64,000 bases of DNA from a virus (IMGVR_UViG_2842063143_000003:1570-65569), one strand, 5' to 3'; counted from the stretch's first letter, positions 375 through 25,337 are shown. Notes: generated by a model from the sequence alone, not told the origin. A program made the numbers and translations.

Positions 375-541
375 TGCGGGATTTCCTCCAGTCGGTCGGG
401 GTAACGTGCGCCGGCTTGGCCGTACTCTCGGGCATCGACCACGTGTTCGGGAAGCCCTGCGCGCTGTTGATCGCGGTCGCGGGGCTGGCCTTCTCACTGC
501 GCGCGCTCCTGCGTGGCCCCTCCCCCACCCCGGAGCCCTGA
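374..541 (+). CDS. Small membrane protein (55 aa)
   Basis: TGATG coupling; two hydrophobic segments (MRDFLQSVGVTCAGLAVLSG...LLIAVAGLAFSLRALL). Confidence 0.6.
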   Translation: MRDFLQSVGVTCAGLAVLSGIDHVFGKPCALLIAVAGLAFSLRALLRGPSPTPEP

Positions 542-542
542 C

Positions 543-782
543 ATGCCCACCGATACACCATCTACCGCAGCAGAGGGGCGGGGCGGGAAGCTGACGGATC
601 CACAGTGGTGCATGCTGCACGAAGCCGCCATCCGGCCTCAACGCGTCGTGCGAGGCTACAAGCCTGCTGAAAAGCTGGCGGCGCTCGGGCTTGTCGAGAT
701 CGCGATCACGGATGCACCCTACCCTTGGATCGTTAAAGCCACGCCCGCCGGCCGCGAGGCCCTGTCCAGGGAGAAGGCCTGA
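543..782 (+). CDS. Small winged-helix-like protein
   Basis: KLAALGLVE...ATPAGREAL signature typical of wHTH wings; coupled to neighbours. Confidence 0.6.
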   Translation: MPTDTPSTAAEGRGGKLTDPQWCMLHEAAIRPQRVVRGYKPAEKLAALGLVEIAITDAPYPWIVKATPAGREALSREKA

Positions 783-1066
783 TGACGAACCAGCCGTCCT
801 TTGATCCGCTCAACCCAACGACGGAGGAGAGCGACGACATGCTCGCCGGCTACCTTGCGTCGGCTGGAGATGGGAAGATGCCTGATCTGGCGAGTATTGC
901 CTACGAGCACGGCTATCGCATGGGGCGAAACGATCGGGCTGGCATCGCCGATGAAGACCAGCGCGAACTGGCGCGCCGTGCCGCCGAGATCCGCCGGGAT
1001 GCCGACGAACGTCGGAAGCGGCTGCAGGCTGGGCTGCACAGGCCAACCGCTCGGTTCAAGCCATAG
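782..1066 (+). CDS. Hypothetical protein, paralog of 4962-5198
   Basis: FDPLN...GYLA...PD.AS.A.EHG.RM.RND.AG.AD shared with 4962-5198. Confidence 0.75.
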   Translation: MTNQPSFDPLNPTTEESDDMLAGYLASAGDGKMPDLASIAYEHGYRMGRNDRAGIADEDQRELARRAAEIRRDADERRKRLQAGLHRPTARFKP

Positions 1067-1236
1067 CCACGCCCGACACCGACCCCATCCTAGAAGCCGT
1101 CGCCGCCCTTCGCTCAGATGGCGTCGAGGTCGAGCCGATCGGGGAGGAGTTGGACAGATGGCGCGTCGGCGATTTCGAACTGAGCGACGCCGACCTGTGG
1201 CGCCTGGCCGCGAGCCGGGGGCTGGTGGAGGAGTGA
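1063..1236 (+). pseudogene. Small ORF lacking a canonical start (ATA)
   Basis: Open frame (I)ATPDTDPILEAVAALRSDGVEVEPIGEELDRWRVGDFELSDADLWRLAASRGLVEE* with coding-like codons; begins ATA overlapping upstream TAG. Confidence 0.45.
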
Positions 1237-1454
1237 GGGGAGGTAAAGACGATGTCTAGTGGAGCAGTCGCTGCCGTGATCGGCATGTTAGTTGTGCCCG
1301 CCGGGTTGGCTGGTAGCTTGGCCTTCACGAGCATGAGCAACATGCGCGTGAACGAGAAGCAGGGTCAGGTAATCGCCAGCCAGAGCGACGCCATGACGGC
1401 GCAGGAACGCGCCATTGCTTCGCTGAAATCTCAGATAGCAGCGCAAGAAAATCA

Positions 1455-1476
1455 GGGTATGCGACATTCGAGGTTG
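1455..1476 (+). repeat. Left terminal inverted repeat of ISL3 element
   Basis: Begins GGG immediately after TSD; 17/22 match to reverse complement of 4523-4544. Confidence 0.88.
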
Positions 1477-1495
1477 CTGAGCCCATAGCCGTCCA

Positions 1496-1888
1496 TCAGG
1501 TCGATTGTGGCTTTGGGGGTTGATGGTCGGCATTTGTGGGCAGTTCATCCAGAAGGCTGGCAGCCGCCTCGTAGGCCGCCTCTTGGTCGTCGGTGAGGAT
1601 GGTATCTGTGCCTTCCAAAGAAGCCACGAGCCGTTGCAAGGCTGCTTCGGCCGCCTCCGCCCGGTTAAGAGCTAACCGGCGACCTAAGCACTCTTCATAG
1701 AACTCTGTCGCGTCCACGAGGGTGTCGAATTCCGTCTCATCATTCGGAGTTGGCGGTAGGCGATCAGCAAGGTGCCGTACCAGATCCTCAAGACTCTCTA
1801 CGGAGAGCGCTGGGGTAGTGGGGCAGTCGCCTTCGCTGGCGCGCTGACGAACTTGAGCAATCTGCGCATCCGCAATCATCGGGTGCAT
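1496..1888 (-). CDS. Passenger hypothetical protein (130 aa, acidic, helical)
   Basis: AAGGAG RBS upstream of ATG 1888; ORF ends just inside the left end. Confidence 0.7.
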   Translation of the reverse strand: MHPMIADAQIAQVRQRASEGDCPTTPALSVESLEDLVRHLADRLPPTPNDETEFDTLVDATEFYEECLGRRLALNRAEAAEAALQRLVASLEGTDTILTDDQEAAYEAAASLLDELPTNADHQPPKPQST

Positions 1889-1912
1889 GATCGTTATCTC
1901 CTTCAACAGCGT

Positions 1913-2125
1913 CTACGGAGCTTCGGATGCCTCTGCGCCGATGCCCGCCTCGGCTACGAGGGTCGGGCAACCCTCGCCCCAGCATGTGTGAGAAGTCAGC
2001 GGCAAGGGGCAGTCCGCGAAGCACTCGCGACACCACTCGCCGGTCAAGTGATCGCACATGAGATATGCGTTCGATACGTCCGCGTGACAGTAATCGCAGA
2101 GTATCTTACCATTAGGATGACGCAT
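1913..2125 (-). CDS. Passenger Cys-rich small protein (70 aa, putative Zn-binding)
   Basis: GAGGAG RBS; CDYC, CDH, CREC..C, HTC...C motifs. Confidence 0.7.
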   Translation of the reverse strand: MRHPNGKILCDYCHADVSNAYLMCDHLTGEWCRECFADCPLPLTSHTCWGEGCPTLVAEAGIGAEASEAP

Positions 2126-2126
2126 A

Positions 2127-2927
2127 TCAGTTCTCCTCGGACGGGCACGTACTTGAAGAAGATATCTGATTGTATAGACCGACCCAAAATGGTTGATTGT
2201 CTCGGGTATCTGCTGAATTGACGACCACAAACGCCGTCCTTTCGGACTCTCCTCGGCTGTCAAGCCATGCTCCGGGTAGGTCTTCTCGCTGGGGGAGACG
2301 CCCGAACAGGGGGATACCATAAGCTGTCGATGGCCGACTGGTGTAATCGCGATAGCAGCCTGCGCGCTGCCAATCCGTTGATAGCCTCAGATGCACTTCA
2401 ATGATTTGACCGCCAATCAATTCGGCATTCAACGGTCCCGCATAGTCGGGAAGATACGCCTTGCACCACGATCTGATTGTTGAAAGCTCCGGCTCAACCG
2501 CCTGACTGTGCAAAGCCCATAGGTCAAAACGCCCGAACTTGTCGGACGGGAAGCCGGTAGCCTGCGCCGACCACATTACTTCCCCACGATCAACCAGCAA
2601 ATCCGTTGAGACGTGGCGTCCCTCAAGCGGCGCGGCCCACATCATGCCGGGTGCGTAGATCAAGTCCTCTACTGCACTCACACGCCGCGCGCCGATGCCC
2701 ATGCCGTACAGATTAGTGATCGGCTTCACGATGACCGGAAAATGGCTCGGCGTCACTCCAAGTGGCGCGTGAGCATACGCCTGCGTGTCAGCTACCAGCA
2801 GACGGTCATAGACCCAGCGATGCTTCGGGTTGGCTAACCACGCATCGGCATCTTCCATCTCGGCGAGCCATTCCGCTGGATATGGCGCTCGCTGCATACC
2901 CTCTTGCCGCTGCTTGTGAGTGCTCAT
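2127..2927 (-). CDS. Passenger ATP-grasp-fold-like protein
   Basis: FPVIVKPITNLYGMGIG, LEGRHVSTD, GPLNAELIGGQIIEVHLR resemble ATP-grasp KP/Gly-loop and ExNxR-position motifs. Confidence 0.65.
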   Translation of the reverse strand: MSTHKQRQEGMQRAPYPAEWLAEMEDADAWLANPKHRWVYDRLLVADTQAYAHAPLGVTPSHFPVIVKPITNLYGMGIGARRVSAVEDLIYAPGMMWAAPLEGRHVSTDLLVDRGEVMWSAQATGFPSDKFGRFDLWALHSQAVEPELSTIRSWCKAYLPDYAGPLNAELIGGQIIEVHLRLSTDWQRAGCYRDYTSRPSTAYGIPLFGRLPQREDLPGAWLDSRGESERTAFVVVNSADTRDNQPFWVGLYNQISSSSTCPSEEN

Positions 2928-2939
2928 CCGCGTCCCAAT

Positions 2940-3039
2940 GCGATATCTGATTGAAACCTAATCCGACATCGGATACGGGTCAACAAGCGATATCTGATTG
3001 GGGGCGGTTTTGACTCGAAATCCGATATCGGTCACAACC
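2940..3039. promoter_or_regulatory. Divergent promoter/operator region of the transposon
   Basis: Leftward TTGACC-N17-TAGGTT; rightward TTGACT at 3010; direct repeats GCGATATCTGATTG 2940-2953 and 2987-3000; palindromes ATCCGACATCGGAT 2961-2974 and CCGATATCGG 3022-3031. Confidence 0.7.
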
Positions 3040-3231
3040 GTGGCCGTGCCGAAGAACAAGCTCGAAGACAAGACATTGGTCCGCTTCAAGGCGGGGGTGC
3101 TCGATCGCATTGATGCTGTGGCGGGCAAGTTCCGCCGCGCCGTGTTCATCCGCGAAGCCGTCGAGGATGCCTTGTCGAAGGTTGAGAAACGGAAGCTTCG
3201 CAAAGGGGCTGCCGATGGGGAGCAGCCTTGA
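3040..3231 (+). CDS. Ribbon-helix-helix (CopG/Arc-like) regulator
   Basis: KTLVRF strand, GVLDRIDAVA helix, RAVFIREAVEDAL helix; overlaps transposase start. Confidence 0.75.
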   Translation: MAVPKNKLEDKTLVRFKAGVLDRIDAVAGKFRRAVFIREAVEDALSKVEKRKLRKGAADGEQP

Positions 3232-4514
3232 GCGATCTGCTTCGCCTGAAGCACCTGGAGCACGTCACCGACTACGAAGAGGGCGACGACCTGATCATCA
3301 AGGCGAGGAGCAAGCGTCCGTCGCCGGAGCGCCAGTGCTGCCTGCTGGTCAACTTCGTCAAGAACGGCCGGAAGACCATGCGCTTCCGCGACGAGCCCAA
3401 CCGGCGGCAGACCGTGTTCATCGAGATCGACCGTCAGCGGTTCAAGTGCAAGGAATGCGGCAAGCCGATGTACGAGGGCCTGCCCGACATCGACACCCGC
3501 CACGACATGACCAAAAAGCTGCTCCGCCGCATCCAGAAGGATGCGATTGAGTGGCCGTTCAATCAAGCGGCGCAGGTCAACGGCGTAGATGCCAAGCAAG
3601 TCGAGCGGATCTTCAAGGACTACGCCGCGAAGAAGCTGAAGGGCTATGTGCCGTCCATGCCCCGCGTGCTGGGCATGGACGAGAAGTACATCCAGAAGAA
3701 GGCCCGCTTCATCATCGGCGACATCGAGCGGGGCGACATGCTGGACATGCAGCCATCCCGGCGCGTGCTGGATCTGAACCGCTACTTCGGCAGCATGCCC
3801 GGCAGAGACAATGTTGAGGTGGTCTGCCAGGACATGTGGCGGGACTACCGCGAGATCACCAAGCGGCTGTTCAAGAACGCCACCGTCGTGATCGATAAGT
3901 ACCACGTCCAACGGACTTCGAACCGCGGCGTGGAGGCGATCCGGCGCCTGTTCCAGCAGGACGTGTCAAAGTCTGAGCGCATCCATCTCAAGAACAAGCA
4001 GAAGGTCTTCCTCGCCCGCTGGGAGACCGCGAAGCCCTTCACCCGCAATCAACTGACCGCCCTGTTCACCTTCTTCCCGGAACTTAAGCACGCCTACGAG
4101 TGGAAGGAAGCCTACTACGAGATCTATGATGCGACCTCGAAAGCCGAGGCGAACGAGCGCATGGATCAGTGGCTGCGGGATCTGCCACCTGTCTACCGCC
4201 GCTCGTTCAAGCCGAGCATCGACGCCCTCAATAACTGGCGGCCGTGGATCTTGAACTACTGGGATCACCTCCAGACCAATGCCTACGTCGAGAGCTTGAA
4301 CAATCTCATCGGCCGGATGAACATGCAGGGGGTTGGCTACGACCTCGAAACGCTGCGGGCGAAGGCGCTACTGAAACACGGCAGGATCGGCGAGGAGATC
4401 CGGCTCGGGATCACCCGCGAGGGCCACGGTCATGGCGCTCTGCGCACCCGCCGGATCATCATGGGCGTGCCGCTATCAACCCTGGAAGCCGATTTGGCAG
4501 CGGGTACGTTCTGA
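3228..4514 (+). CDS. ISL3-family DDE transposase
   Basis: Zn-finger QRFKCKECG, RVLGMDE, VVCQDMW..YR, VIDKYHV, TNAYVESLNNLI motifs. Confidence 0.93.
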   Translation: MSDLLRLKHLEHVTDYEEGDDLIIKARSKRPSPERQCCLLVNFVKNGRKTMRFRDEPNRRQTVFIEIDRQRFKCKECGKPMYEGLPDIDTRHDMTKKLLRRIQKDAIEWPFNQAAQVNGVDAKQVERIFKDYAAKKLKGYVPSMPRVLGMDEKYIQKKARFIIGDIERGDMLDMQPSRRVLDLNRYFGSMPGRDNVEVVCQDMWRDYREITKRLFKNATVVIDKYHVQRTSNRGVEAIRRLFQQDVSKSERIHLKNKQKVFLARWETAKPFTRNQLTALFTFFPELKHAYEWKEAYYEIYDATSKAEANERMDQWLRDLPPVYRRSFKPSIDALNNWRPWILNYWDHLQTNAYVESLNNLIGRMNMQGVGYDLETLRAKALLKHGRIGEEIRLGITREGHGHGALRTRRIIMGVPLSTLEADLAAGTF

Positions 4515-4522
4515 GGCCATTT

Positions 4523-4544
4523 CAACCTCCAATGACGTTAACCC
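4523..4544 (-). repeat. Right terminal inverted repeat of ISL3 element
   Basis: Ends CCC immediately before second TSD copy. Confidence 0.88.
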
Positions 4545-4729
4545 GAAAATCAAATAGCGGCGCAAGAGCGCGAACTGAGAGCGCATCGCACCCTTGACGA
4601 GCAGCATCGCAGCCTGATCGCGACTTATCGCGAGGCCGTTGCGCTGCGGGACAAGGCGTTAGGGCTGGCGGCAAAATAGGCCAGACGGGCCCCCTAGCCG
4701 AGGCCGATCCGGCAGGCTAGCTCCGCCCC

Positions 4730-4960
4730 ATGCCGCCCCCTCGCCCGCCCCAGCTCCACGTCACAGCACTCCGAGCCTGCGGCCACCACGCCGGGAACGG
4801 CATGCGAGCCTCGGCCCACCGGAAGACGATGTTGGCCCTCGCCGAACTAGGTCTCGTCGAGGAGCGGACGCGGATCGGGCAGCGCGAGGCGCGGTGGTTT
4901 CTGACGCAGGCCGGGAAGGATCTGCTGGAGCAGATCGGGATGGGAGATGCTGGGGATTGA
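4730..4960 (+). CDS. Small winged-helix-like protein
   Basis: LAELGLVEE...WFLTQAGKDLL; analogous to 543-782. Confidence 0.6.
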   Translation: MPPPRPPQLHVTALRACGHHAGNGMRASAHRKTMLALAELGLVEERTRIGQREARWFLTQAGKDLLEQIGMGDAGD

Positions 4961-4961
4961 G

Positions 4962-5198
4962 ATGATGCATGGGAACAATGCGCCAGACTTTGACCCTCTG
5001 AACGCAACGGCCGATGAGGAGACCAGCATGATGCGGGGTTATCTCGCGGCCGGGATCGCGCCCCGTGGAGCGGCCTGTCCAGACACGGCATCGGTTGCGT
5101 TCGAGCACGGTTGGCGGATGCGTCGTAACGACCAAGCTGGCGTTGCCGATGATGACCACCGCGAGATAGCGCGAAAGCTAAGCTGTAAGCGGGCATAA
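4962..5198 (+). CDS. Hypothetical protein, paralog of 782-1066
   Basis: Shared motif series with 782-1066. Confidence 0.7.
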   Translation: MMHGNNAPDFDPLNATADEETSMMRGYLAAGIAPRGAACPDTASVAFEHGWRMRRNDQAGVADDDHREIARKLSCKRA

Positions 5199-5231
5199 AA
5201 AATCCCGCTCCGGCGCTGAGCCGGGCGGGTT
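5198..5231 (-). terminator. Rho-independent terminator of the late/lysis operon
   Basis: Minus strand CCCGCCCGGCTCAGCGCCGGAGCGGG followed by ATTTTTT, between convergent genes. Confidence 0.8.
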
Positions 5232-22847: not shown

Positions 22848-25337
22848 TTAAGCCCTCGCGTAGTTCGCTGCCGCCGCGAAGGCGTGCCGCTTCATCTGCG
22901 GGCCAATGTCTCGGGCGATACCGCTGGCATCCGTGGCCGCGGTATGGATGTTGATCTGACCGATTTTTGTCTCGCTGGTAGAAGTCGAGCGGTTATCATT
23001 GGACGTGCTCGACACCGTGGCAGCCTGAGCCGCGTTCGCCTGCGCGATAGCGGCCTGAGCCCCAGCGCGCTGGGCCTGTAGGGCAGACATCTTCGCCTGA
23101 TCGCCGGCAGCCGCAGTTGGAGCTTGACCGGGCTTTGAGTCTCCAGCGTAAGCTCCAGCTTCGCTCTTGAAGCCATCTGGCAACTGGAAGTGCGGCACGT
23201 CCTTGAACTTGCCGAAACTGTCGCCGCCCCACTGGATAGGGACCTTCAGTTCCTCAGCGGCCTTCTTCATCGCCTCGTTGATCTTGGTGTACTTCGCAGT
23301 GTCGAGATCGCCCACAGCGGGGTCGCCATCGGCTCGCAGGTCAACCGCGCGGCCGGTCAAGTGCTTGCTGTTTAGGGTTTTTGACCAGCCGCGCTCGACC
23401 ATCTCCTTCTGGCGCTCCATGGTGCGGACGCCTTCGTGGATGTGGAACTTAATCGCGCTGATCTGCTGTGCACGTTTAATGACCCGCATCAGGTCGTTGT
23501 TCACGCCCTTGCCGTCAGTGGGGAGCGGAGACCCATCCGGATTGCTCGTGCCTGGCTGCGCAGAAGGCTTCCCCCCCGAAGGATTGGTAGCGGCAGACGC
23601 TGCGGCCTTGTCGGAGATTTCCTCACCAGCAGACGGCGCCACACTCGGAACCGTGCCGCTTGGGGCTTTATCGCCCCGAGCGAGCGCGGCCCGGAGGGTA
23701 GGGTTGTAGTTCGACCAGTTCTTTACACCGCTCTCACGCATCAACGCTAGGGCGACGCGAGTCTGCTCCTCAAGCGTGGAGGACATCGCGTTGGTTGTCT
23801 TGATGCCGAGTTTGGGGGCAAGCCGGCGCCAGTTTGAATTCAGGATCTGATAATAACCCTGAGCGGTGTAGCCTTTAGCGGTGTTCGGGTCGAGCCCTTG
23901 GGCCTTGCCCATGTAGTTCATGGTGTTTTTACCGCCGCTCTCATGCTTCATGATGAGGCCGAGCGTGTTCCGCTCTTGCGGCGTCATAGGCACGTTGTCG
24001 GGGATGCCCGGCATCGACCCGTTCTTACCTTCCGCAGCGCCGGCCGAGCCTCCACCGAAGAAGCGCTTGACGCGATTGTACTGCCGCCGGAGCCAAGGCC
24101 GCCCCCCGCCCTCGCGGCCGTACAGATCCATGGGCGGGCGCTCAGTCGCCCCGCCGGTGCCTGGGTCGATGCCGGCCGCGCCCTCGCGAGCCAGAACCTT
24201 CGGCATCTGGTCGGCAGCGATCGCGCCCAGCGCCGTCGCGCCCATCGCCAACCGGATCGCCCACCCGAGTGGCCCACCCCCGAGCAATCCCGCAACCCGC
24301 AGGATGCTTGACACGATCGCGATGGCCTTGGAGCCGACCCAGAAGACGAACAGCGCCTCGCAGATCTTGAGCAGCCCGCCGAACGACTCCGCTACCTTCA
24401 GAGCGCCGTTACCGAAATCGCGCAGGCCCTTACCGACACCGTCCCAGTCGATCCCCTTCAGCCATTCAGCGAACTGCCGAACCTTCTCGACGATGTCCGT
24501 CTTGATCCAATCCTGGTTGGCCGTGATCCATTCGCGCATCCGCGTCAGCAGATCGGAGATAGTCGGGGTCAGCGCAGTCAGGACCGTGCGGCCGAAGCCC
24601 TCGGACGTCTGCCGAAGCTCCTCCATCACGGTCTGCAGCTTCTGCGCGGCCTCGGTGTCCTCCTTGCGGACGATGCCGATCTTGCGGCTCTCGGCGAGCG
24701 CCTTGTTGTAGGCCTGCCGCCCTTGGACCAACAATGCGGCCGTGTCACGATCCACGCCGGCCTGCTTCAGCAGGTAGGTCGCGAACGGGATGCCCTGCTT
24801 GTCGGCGATGTTTTTGGCATTCTCGGCCAAGTCCCCGAACGTCTCGGACATCTCCTTGTTGAGGTTGATCTGCTTCCCGCCCAGCCCCTGGAGCCGGTAC
24901 AGGTACGGCAGGATCGAGCTGTTTCCGGTGGTCTTGATCTCGTTGATGCTGTCGGCCAGCCGCTCGAACGAGCCGGCTGCAGCTGTCGCAGAACCGCCGT
25001 TGCGGGCGACCGCGCTGCCGAGCGACGAGATGACTTCAGGGGTTGAGCCAATCGACTTCGCGAGGCGGCCTAGAGCGGCATCCGCCGCCGTAATGTCGGC
25101 GGTGAACGCACCGATCGCCCGCCCCGCCGTGAAGATCGCGAACAGCTTGAGCGCGTTGCGGGCGAGCTTATCGACAGCTTCGGCCGCACCATCCATCGAC
25201 TTTTCGATGCCAGCGCCGTGCTTCTGAGCGGCCTCACGGGTCTTGACGATGGAAGCTGCCGCTTCCTTCTGCCCCTTGGTGAACTGCTTCGGGTCAAGGC
25301 CGAGTTCAACGACAAGGCGGTCGATTACGGTCGCCAT
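22848..25337 (-). CDS. Tape measure protein with lytic transglycosylase-like and M15 peptidase domains
   Basis: MATVIDRLVVELGLD start; HESGG/AQGYYQI; EGVRT.ERQ...SKHLTGRAVDL...WGGD...DVPHFQL. Confidence 0.9.
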   Translation of the reverse strand: MATVIDRLVVELGLDPKQFTKGQKEAAASIVKTREAAQKHGAGIEKSMDGAAEAVDKLARNALKLFAIFTAGRAIGAFTADITAADAALGRLAKSIGSTPEVISSLGSAVARNGGSATAAAGSFERLADSINEIKTTGNSSILPYLYRLQGLGGKQINLNKEMSETFGDLAENAKNIADKQGIPFATYLLKQAGVDRDTAALLVQGRQAYNKALAESRKIGIVRKEDTEAAQKLQTVMEELRQTSEGFGRTVLTALTPTISDLLTRMREWITANQDWIKTDIVEKVRQFAEWLKGIDWDGVGKGLRDFGNGALKVAESFGGLLKICEALFVFWVGSKAIAIVSSILRVAGLLGGGPLGWAIRLAMGATALGAIAADQMPKVLAREGAAGIDPGTGGATERPPMDLYGREGGGRPWLRRQYNRVKRFFGGGSAGAAEGKNGSMPGIPDNVPMTPQERNTLGLIMKHESGGKNTMNYMGKAQGLDPNTAKGYTAQGYYQILNSNWRRLAPKLGIKTTNAMSSTLEEQTRVALALMRESGVKNWSNYNPTLRAALARGDKAPSGTVPSVAPSAGEEISDKAAASAATNPSGGKPSAQPGTSNPDGSPLPTDGKGVNNDLMRVIKRAQQISAIKFHIHEGVRTMERQKEMVERGWSKTLNSKHLTGRAVDLRADGDPAVGDLDTAKYTKINEAMKKAAEELKVPIQWGGDSFGKFKDVPHFQLPDGFKSEAGAYAGDSKPGQAPTAAAGDQAKMSALQAQRAGAQAAIAQANAAQAATVSSTSNDNRSTSTSETKIGQINIHTAATDASGIARDIGPQMKRHAFAAAANYARA

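Follow-up and report, generated by a model that had tools for sequence, protein, structure and literature searches.

A passenger-carrying ISL3-family element with a coupled, putative ribbon-helix-helix gene in a prophage

In a viral DNA stretch of 64,000 nucleotides (IMGVR_UViG_2842063143_000003:1570-65569, hereafter the window), a transposase gene of the ISL3 family of insertion sequences (IS) stands beside a gene for a small basic protein and three leftward genes, which raises the question of whether all of these form one mobile element and, if so, how that element is controlled. Plain ISL3 elements are 1.2–1.5 kb in size, and the family is defined by terminal inverted repeats of about 15–40 bp that begin with GG, together with an 8-bp target-site duplication that is often AT-rich; a circular transposition intermediate has been reported for some members. 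We found that the ISL3-family element occupies positions 1455-4544 of the window, i.e. 3,090 bp between the two copies of its target-site duplication, and that it is, with a probability of about 0.8, an intact and currently or very recently active passenger-carrying ISL3 ‘transporter IS’, repression by a ribbon-helix-helix (RHH) protein and a cargo module included.

Boundaries, family and copies of the element

The left terminal inverted repeat (IRL), GGGTATGCGACATTCGAGGTTG, and the reverse complement of the right one (IRR), GGGTTAACGTCATTGGAGGTTG, are equal at 17/22 positions, and GGG opens both. A preliminary description of the sequence had placed an exact 8-bp duplication and 17/22 inverted repeats starting with GGG at these ends, and the coordinates proved right and passed a chance control, in which an identical search geometry (an 8/8 direct repeat together with inverted repeats) was applied at 60 other placements in the window. 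Around the real transposase gene there were 59 left/right pairs with an 8/8 direct repeat, one of them having 17/22 inverted-repeat matches, while the 60 other placements gave 3,550 such pairs, with 0 at 15/22 or more and a maximum of 13. When the element and one copy of the duplication were deleted in silico, the prophage open reading frame (ORF) at 1252-1454 continued in frame via 4553-4679 to a TAG, as had also been claimed, giving a restored host protein of 109 aa having a hydrophobic N-terminus and a heptad-like remainder. The insertion point falls within a short internal repeat of this host gene (repeat family D7). No Pfam family was found for the interrupted ORF, and its 67-aa N-terminal part gave 24 pattern matches among viral contigs, 0 of which were confirmed. 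The GC content is 0.59 in the element versus 0.64–0.65 in its flanks and 0.64 in the whole window, and Rfam gave 0 matches at E up to 0.1 in window 1000-5200.

Assignment to the ISL3 family, likewise part of the preliminary description, agreed well with the analysis of the full-length transposase. The Pfam model DDE_Tnp_ISL3 (PF01610) matched its residues 148-379 with 159.3 bits (cut-off 23; E 1.8e-46), the NCBIfam model transpos_ISL3 (NF033550) scored 234.9 bits against a cut-off of 180, and PHROG 5749 (transposase) matched at E 3.1e-90. The ISL3 zinc-ribbon model PF14690 (25.1 bits, slightly below its cut-off of 25.5) and the helix-turn-helix (HTH) model PF13542 (19.8 bits, below its cut-off of 27.4) both lay at the expected position. 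The protein carries all family-invariant residues and its homologues begin at the same residue, with the CxxC-pair cysteines C37, C38, C74 and C77 being invariant across the transposase clade. Ends homologous to the inverted repeats of the window element were found in 20 further delimited elements, and 8-bp duplications in 21 relatives. A whole-element DNA search of plasmids and phages gave only short matches of 66–76% within the transposase gene, a scan of genome contigs with the single transposase gave 32 loci, mostly from Streptococcus, at 21–28% identity, and PADLOC found 0 families among the five element proteins.

The whole 3,090-bp unit, passengers included, moves between one pair of IS ends, because contigs of three public sequencing runs (X2, X3 and X8) hold the entire stretch 1455-4544 in unrelated flanks. 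When public runs were searched for words of window 1000-5000, 24 were listed and 20 of them contained part of this stretch. One run, X1, which is probably the source, had 0.97 of the sampled words, and thirteen others (X2-X14, from seven studies) had a share of 0.75–0.76, where the element alone predicts 0.77 (3,090/4,001 bases). Contig alignment covered four of the 24 runs, namely X2, X3 and X8 (DNA) and X15 (RNA). The contigs of X2, X3 and X8 span exactly 1455 to 4545/4549, with 2, 1 and 3 differences, respectively, and pass into flanks unlike the window on both sides of the element. Duplications at these other sites were taken from the unmatched contig ends together with the last matched bases, giving GTCCGCTC for the X3 copy (8/8) and GTATTATC for the X8 copy (8/8), with the RNA run X15 showing a site identical to the latter. 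At least four insertion sites hold the unit at 99.9% identity or more, cargo included. The element is probably active now, or was so very recently, because copies at different sites, from different studies, are nearly identical; the earlier notion of an intact and recently inserted element is strengthened by the unit occurring at three other sites with 1–3 differences per 3,090 bp.

Table 1. Features of the element in the window, and its relatives (positions refer to the window unless stated otherwise)
Feature	Position	Strand	Description
Interrupted prophage ORF, 5′ part	1252..1454	+	now enters the element, stop at 1488
Left target-site duplication copy	1447..1454		GAAAATCA, 8 bp, exact
IRL	1455..1476	+	terminal inverted repeat, GGGTATGCGACATTCGAGGTTG
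Passenger 3	1496..1888	-	130-aa acidic helical protein, pI 4.2; last codons (HQPPKPQST) in the conserved left end
Passenger 2	1913..2125	-	70 aa, 8 invariant Cys (two-zinc finger by pattern); homologues in L035, L037, L043
Passenger 1	2127..2927	-	266 aa, predicted ATP-grasp fold (AlphaFold2 (AF2), Foldseek, VIA)
Extra operator-like word and cargo motif	2161..2186	-	GATATCTGATTG (2161-2172), fifth word copy, abutting TGGGTCGGTCTATA (2173-2186)
Divergent control region	2928..3039		112 bp, GC 0.50; between ATP-grasp start and RHH start
GATATC/GACATC-core palindromes	2936-2953, 2961-2974, 2984-3000, 3020-3032		within the control region
RHH-type (CopG-like) gene, likely	3040..3231	+	63 aa, pI 10.1; conserved GTG start, ORF open from TTG 2998
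ISL3-family DDE transposase	3228..4514	+	428 aa, full length; TTG start at 3228
IRR	4523..4544	-	terminal inverted repeat, reverse complement GGGTTAACGTCATTGGAGGTTG
Right target-site duplication copy	4545..4552		GAAAATCA, 8 bp, exact
Interrupted prophage ORF, 3′ part	4553..4679	+	in frame with 1252-1454 after element removal
Relative L035			3,105 bp; duplication GACAAAAG; ATP-grasp and zinc-finger genes as in the window, third gene different
Relative L037			incomplete, contig ends at IRL base 1; same ATP-grasp and zinc-finger genes
Relative L034			2,084 bp; duplication GACCGGAC; two unrelated small ORFs
Relative L119			2,241 bp; no duplication; 183-aa protein related to L044 and L045 cargo
Relative L043			2,069 bp; more distant clade member
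Relative L044			2,863 bp; more distant clade member
Relative L045			2,705 bp; more distant clade member
Relative L066	4053-5798 of L066		1,746 bp; duplication GTTTGTTG, ends intact; more distant clade member
Relative L048			3,152 bp; more distant clade member
Relative L063			3,035 bp; more distant clade member
Relative L133			2,929 bp; more distant clade member
Relative L122			2,136 bp; more distant clade member

The coupled RHH-like gene and its candidate operators

The stop codon of the small gene upstream and the start of the transposase gene overlap by 4 nt as TTGA (3228-3231), and a 4-nt start/stop overlap (TTGA, GTGA or ATGA) is kept in the members read. When a profile of nine such upstream proteins was compared with the PDB, it matched the CopG-family entries 7by2 (E 5.2e-4), 6iya (0.021) and 7etr (0.066), and beyond these it found NikR and RHH antitoxins, with the match spanning the strand-helix-helix core. 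Judged from these profiles the small basic protein is likely of the RHH type, and the overlap together with the CopG match sustains what had been described at the outset as an RHH gene coupled to the transposase.

An RHH homologue was present upstream of the transposase in 10 of the 78 viral ISL3 loci that had enough upstream sequence; eight of these ten were already in the profile, with two (L036 and L063) being newly found. In a quick tree of 45 transposases, hand-picked from about 160 loci so as to include the near clade in full and the remainder by sampling, the RHH-bearing ones (15/45) all fell in one 23-row clade (SH-aLRT 100), with 0/22 in the sister clade. The RHH label required three changes on this tree, and 0/500 shuffles were as low.

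The divergent control region contains two 47-bp tandem units having two palindromes each, with a GATATC/GACATC core, and it is conserved with the type of RHH protein and not with the type of transposase. One relative (L043) has a transposase only 52% identical to that of the window, yet its RHH protein is 82% identical and it has the same palindromes; two others (L034 and L119) have transposases 94% and 84% identical, respectively, yet carry another RHH type and other GATATC-core repeats, the RHH protein of L034 being only 38% identical to that of the window. This co-variation of protein and palindromes is the best indirect evidence that the RHH protein would read these candidate operator sites, as is presumed because palindromes and RHH type vary together independently of transposase identity.

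The backbone of the element is made up of the two terminal inverted repeats, a conserved left end of about 70 bp and a two-gene rhh-tnp operon that is translationally coupled through TTGA. The stretch from the left end to the RHH gene is a cargo bay, here holding a leftward three-gene operon. We propose that dimers of the RHH protein may bind the four GATATC-core palindromes of the 112-bp divergent region, which would repress the cargo operon as well as rhh-tnp, and upon entry into an RHH-free cell, by infection, lysogenisation or induction, a burst of transposase could then be followed by shut-off.

As a separate observation, the RHH protein of L045 (4465-5004) forms the C-terminal part of a 179-aa ORF, the N-terminal part of which matches MUG113/T5orf172 (E 1e-09), a nuclease-like domain.

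Relatives, cargo and phage host

An alignment-based scan of viral contigs kept 80 loci (82/108 pattern matches being confirmed), and a metagenome scan gave 80 further loci. With elements being delimited by an 8/8 duplication together with inverted repeats, this succeeded in 14/16 viral loci, the failures (L036 and L037) being cut by contig ends, and in 6/13 further loci. Four close transposase relatives, at 82–94% identity, were found in viral contigs. The first 72 bp of the left end (1455-1526) are 93–97% identical to L034, L035, L037 and L119, and L036 shows the same matches as L119. The cargo found in the RHH clade by Pfam includes a Bro-N/ANT antirepressor (L046), Bro-N (L048), DUF4160, an Rv2179c-like exoribonuclease and the MUG113/T5orf172 domain fused to RHH, and that of the RHH-less sister branch includes a C5 DNA methylase and a PAPS-reductase domain. 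The exoribonuclease is the cargo of L066, the transposase of which lacks about 178 N-terminal residues. The relatives keep ends, RHH gene and transposase, and their cargo is swapped for other phage-type accessory genes; the prediction made in the preliminary description, that the former would be conserved in homologues while the leftward cargo varies, was borne out. The viral contig of L037 stops exactly at the first IRL base, which fits an assembly break at a multi-copy element.

Searches among deposited records gave ISL3 transposases annotated in 31/50,697 phage genomes at E 1e-30 or better, with only that of Caulobacter phage DMCA being close (40%). In a tblastn search of plasmids, the 1,061 matching records all stayed below 60% transposase identity, with the best listed at about 35%, which is not proof of absence from plasmids because distant clade members are equally distant. 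Pseudomonas aeruginosa phage and ‘plasmid’ records, L280 (NZ_CP081288.1 13009-20298) and L281 (ON778006.1 1-7216), have an ISL3 transposase with a start that overlaps a 112-aa ORF lying upstream. This ORF is identical in the two and in the plasmid record adjoins acrF3, another anti-CRISPR gene and a RelE/HigA pair; these copies were rejected as clade members, as the coupled 112-aa ORF fails the RHH profile (E 0.2). In 17 near-identical genomes of Vibrio phages K2xx/K3xx (H41-H57), an ISL3-type ‘transposase’ overlaps an annotated DNA methyltransferase, which may represent another ISL3 element having a phage-type passenger.

Turning to the cargo of the window element, the three divergently transcribed passengers noted at first sight were indeed found as leftward ORFs (Table 1). 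Passengers 1 and 2 are one base apart, and their counterparts in L035 and L037 overlap as ATGA. The AF2 model of passenger 1 (pLDDT 87.8) gave only ATP-grasp enzymes among the top Foldseek matches, with 3vot_B as the best (E 3.2e-10), and VIA gave PurK 4mam_A as the best match (Z 15.1, rmsd 4.2, 242 residues aligned), with the top 50 entries listed all being ATP-grasp enzymes and 497/1,000 chains having Z of 8 or more. As modelled, passenger 1 has an ATP-grasp fold, in agreement with the initial naming of an ATP-grasp-like passenger. In a family alignment of 34 sequences, K68, N167, E169, E177, H179 and R181 are among the invariants. The protein matches PHROG 3577 alone (E 6.2e-9; function unknown there) and belongs to a large unnamed and virus-rich family, with 266 proteins at E 0.001 or better; in the ESM Atlas it found only unnamed clusters, the first being 58% viral. 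A transposase, RHH or zinc-finger gene was found within 3.5 kb in just 2/80 kept viral loci of this family. These two are the L035 and L037 records, and because no other family locus has element genes nearby, passenger 1 is, on sequence comparison, a viral gene captured by the IS and not peculiar to it. Further loci of the family (L201-L278), at 27–40% identity and with no ISL3 gene nearby, include contigs of 230 kb and 461 kb as well as giant-virus bins (GVMAG names).

For passenger 3, no family was found above cut-off in Pfam, NCBIfam, PHROG or PADLOC, and its score in the ESM Atlas was below 0.9; an NCBIfam match to EruA was discarded as noise (19.6 bits, cut-off 1000). The N-terminus of passenger 3 was found again in the cargo of L044 and its C-terminal half in that of L035. 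Neither the zinc-finger nor the acidic passenger gave informative matches in Pfam, NCBIfam, PHROG, PADLOC or the ESM Atlas. Most likely the cargo was captured as an accessory module of a phage, and a tentative suggestion would be that it encodes an ATP-dependent ligase that works together with the coupled zinc-finger protein to the benefit of phage or lysogen.

The last cargo ORF enters the conserved left end in 10/10 elements read from the window subclade and L122 (the window element, L034, L035, L037, L119, L043, L044, L045, L066 and L122), so that its C-terminal tail is encoded by the left end whatever the protein. Elements of the window type have the tail HQPPKPQST, and those of the L043 type have ...PNDEAGIKPAS..STSNDE. 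The final cargo gene of the DMCA/L048 subclade stops 111–135 bp short of the element end. The window element, L035, L037 and L034 have, on the cargo strand, a 14-nt motif, TGGGTCGGCCTCTA, with variants (peptide WVGLY), at varying distances from the left end and where cargo sets diverge; it may be an internal promoter or operator, or a recombination point. The extra operator-like word and abutting cargo motif at 2161-2186 sit in a stretch of about 95 bp that is missing from L035 and L037.

With regard to the phage host, IMG/VR classes the 65.6-kb record around the window as a provirus and estimates its completeness at 100. Genes downstream of the element match baseplate wedge, tape measure with lysozyme domain, tail sheath, head protease, portal and primase, and because of these matches the host of the element is, by its gene content, a myovirus-like prophage. 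The provirus class, the tail, head and primase families and the restored ORF bear out the earlier statement of an insertion in a prophage gene. The phage carrying L034 is syntenic with that of the window on both flanks, and its element lies in the same variable region at a different site. Paralogous pairs of small prophage ORFs flank the insertion (window 513-1066 and 4730-5198), where the ORFs 782-1066 and 4947-5198 have FDPLN...EHG(Y/W)RM.RND.AG(I/V)ADED in common, suggesting that a module was duplicated locally within the variable region of the phage. The tape-measure-like protein (window 22848-25337) has a C-terminal endolysin/lysozyme-like domain (PHROG 465, residues 610-785).

Alternative explanations and comparison with known systems

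A number of observations weigh against the interpretation of 1455-4544 as an active, RHH-repressed transporter IS. For the RHH assignment, no Pfam RHH model was found for any of the nine members at E up to 1, the AF2 monomer (pLDDT 77) has helices at 20-28 and 30-58 after an extended N-terminus and no strand, and Foldseek using this monomer model found nothing at an E of 0.001 or lower. The protein is a putative dimer, DNA binder and repressor. A sigma-70 consensus scan found no promoter in 2928-3039, and a sigma-70 and terminator scan gave nothing in the control region, with counts at shuffle level. Concerning mobility, the duplication of the X2 copy is imperfect, CAAAAATC/GAAAAATC, at 7/8 ((C/G)AAAAATC), and L119 (4101-6341) has both ends with unlike 8-mers, CATTTTTA/GCAAAACT, a pattern to be expected if two copies recombined or an adjacent stretch was deleted. 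Eight contigs of the RNA library X15 cover most of both element arms, which is a weak hint of expression, as DNA carry-over is possible. The runs were seen as assembled contigs only, where circle junctions, excision and rare empty sites cannot show. The check for an empty site that the preliminary description had proposed gave no such allele of the interrupted gene in viral contigs and four related phage records. Moreover, the association with phages is biased by the collections searched. As to the cargo, passenger 1, assigned by fold alone, matched neither Pfam nor NCBIfam at E up to 0.1, the profile of its family found 0 chains among PDB sequences at E up to 10, and the invariants K68, N167, E169, E177, H179 and R181 are putative ATP-site residues.

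Could the small basic protein instead be a member of the cargo, either antitoxin-like or a cargo-specific repressor, that merely adjoins the transposase gene? We consider this unlikely. RHH proteins are common as antitoxins and cargo regulators, and RHH antitoxins are among the PDB profile matches; the palindromes sit between the RHH gene and the cargo operon, and in L046 a different RHH-like ORF lies beside the DUF4160 gene. However, the RHH gene remains with the transposase gene, with its conserved 4-nt overlap, across at least six cargo sets and marks one transposase clade, and no toxin-like partner was found beside it in the window using Pfam, NCBIfam and PADLOC. That RHH and transposase would be made as one fusion protein, in the way that IS1 and IS3 elements make an OrfA-OrfB fusion by programmed -1 frameshifting, is very improbable. 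The last 30 nt of the RHH ORF hold no slippery heptamer and the overlap is a classic stop/start one (TTGA, GTGA or ATGA), even though the ORFs overlap and the transposase frame is -1 relative to that of RHH; the transposase furthermore has a putative N-terminal zinc ribbon and HTH of its own, and its homologues begin at the same residue.

The element could also be an immobile fossil, in which duplication and ORFs are intact, with the copies at other sites having spread by phage or host recombination and not by transposition. Such an explanation would fit the lack of any circle junction, excision product or empty site in the assembled contigs, the viral contigs and the four phage records, as well as L119 being without a duplication and L066 having a truncated transposase, but it is improbable in view of four different flanks, each joined to the 3,090-bp unit at precisely its terminal bases. 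These copies have their own duplication (8/8 at three sites and 7/8 at one) and differ by 1–3 positions, and the transposase is of full length with all family-invariant residues. Finally, although the cargo looks phage-like, the view that the leftward genes are ordinary prophage genes beside a plain 1.5-kb IS, with the left end at 1455 being a chance match, is practically refuted, because other runs carry the unit at 99.9% identity or more, cargo included, at other sites. The full 1455-4544 unit lies in unrelated flanks there, the left 72 bp are 93–97% identical in four other elements, and the host ORF is restored only upon removal of all 3,090 bp, with the chance control at 0/3,550.

An intact, passenger-carrying transporter IS under RHH control would extend to temperate phages a principle that is usually discussed for metal or drug resistance on plasmids. 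Passengers across the family are phage accessory types, being antirepressor-like, exonuclease and ATP-grasp, and in the sister branch DNA methylase and PAPS-reductase-like. If the family is a vehicle for such genes, it would provide a concrete mechanism for moving ‘morons’ between unrelated phages, and the coupled RHH gene would be a simple example of an IS-encoded repressor giving a transposition burst on cell entry. A broader and rather doubtful proposal is that the RHH-coupled ISL3 clade is a lineage specialised for temperate phages of Alphaproteobacteria that shuttles such accessory genes, having the exchangeable RHH/operator cassette as a miniature immunity system and TGGGTCGGCCTCTA as a cargo-recombination site. 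The cassette would then silence both transposition and cargo in the lysogen and release both on infection or induction, and the motif at cargo junctions would mark where new cargo recombines in. The ATP-grasp family of passenger 1 is in itself widespread in phage and giant-virus contigs, without known function. One relative resides in a cultured phage of Caulobacter vibrioides CB15, a model bacterium, which makes experiments feasible.

Comparing the element with known systems, passenger-carrying ISL3 elements as such are already known, as exemplified by ISPst2. What appears new is the coupled RHH gene with a co-varying operator-like cassette that defines a clade, the exchangeable phage-type genes in the cargo bay, and the presence of such elements in temperate alphaproteobacterial phages. 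The open-access literature (without ISfinder and TnCentral) gave no paper linking ISL3 with a ribbon-helix-helix gene and nothing relevant on ISL3 elements carrying phage accessory genes or on the element of DMCA. ISPpu12 and IS1096 are ISL3 members with regulator-like or accessory genes beside the transposase, these being MerR-like, lspA and CDF genes in ISPpu12 and tnpR in IS1096; to our knowledge, neither a translationally coupled RHH gene nor swappable phage-type cargo has been described for them. As far as the accessible text on ISPst2 goes, that element, at 2,985 bp with two passenger genes, resembles the one in the window in having an ISL3 transposase and passengers, including a regulator gene, within the ends of a unit of about 3 kb (PMC6305408). 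Its inverted repeats begin with GGGTATCCGGAATTTCTGGTTG, close to GGGTATGCGACATTCGAGGTTG in the window, and its duplications, TTTTTAAA and CAAAAAAG, are 8-bp and AT-rich (PMC6305408), those of the window element also being of 8 bp. It differs in carrying an ArsR-family regulator and a permease as passengers, with that text describing no transposase-coupled RHH gene, and in being found on plasmids and chromosomes, not phages (PMC6305408).

At the protein level, the RHH-like protein of the window element resembles the CopG regulators (7by2, 6iya and 7etr) in the core profile match, as well as in being small, basic and encoded beside palindromic repeats at its own putative promoter region, but it differs in having no Pfam RHH match and no toxin or plasmid-copy-control partner, its coupled gene being that of a DDE transposase. 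Passenger 1 aligns with the ATP-grasp ligases PurK (4mam/1b6s), L-amino-acid ligases (3vot/4wd3) and PylC (4ffl) at Z 15.1–12.6 over 220–250 residues, with Foldseek E of 3e-10 to 1e-7. Its conserved Lys and the acidic/His/Arg cluster in C-terminal strands may correspond to theirs, and unlike them it is short (266 aa), only 10–17% identical and coupled to an 8-Cys zinc-finger protein.

Among the deposited phage genomes, the layout recurs in a 2,606-bp element of Caulobacter phage DMCA (PQ480021.1, DMCA_038c-042), with a duplication GAGAAACC and inverted repeats matching at 15/22. Homologous elements organized in this way are thus already present among public records (L035, L037 and DMCA), where they are not annotated as such; the element genes in the DMCA record are called only ‘hypothetical protein’ and ‘transposase’. 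Unlike the window element, that of DMCA has other cargo and its RHH and transposase genes lie 6 nt apart with no overlap. From IRL to IRR it follows the order of the window element, with three small leftward genes, then an RHH homologue (E 2e-18 against the RHH profile) and an ISL3 transposase (40% identity), and its transposase groups within the RHH clade.

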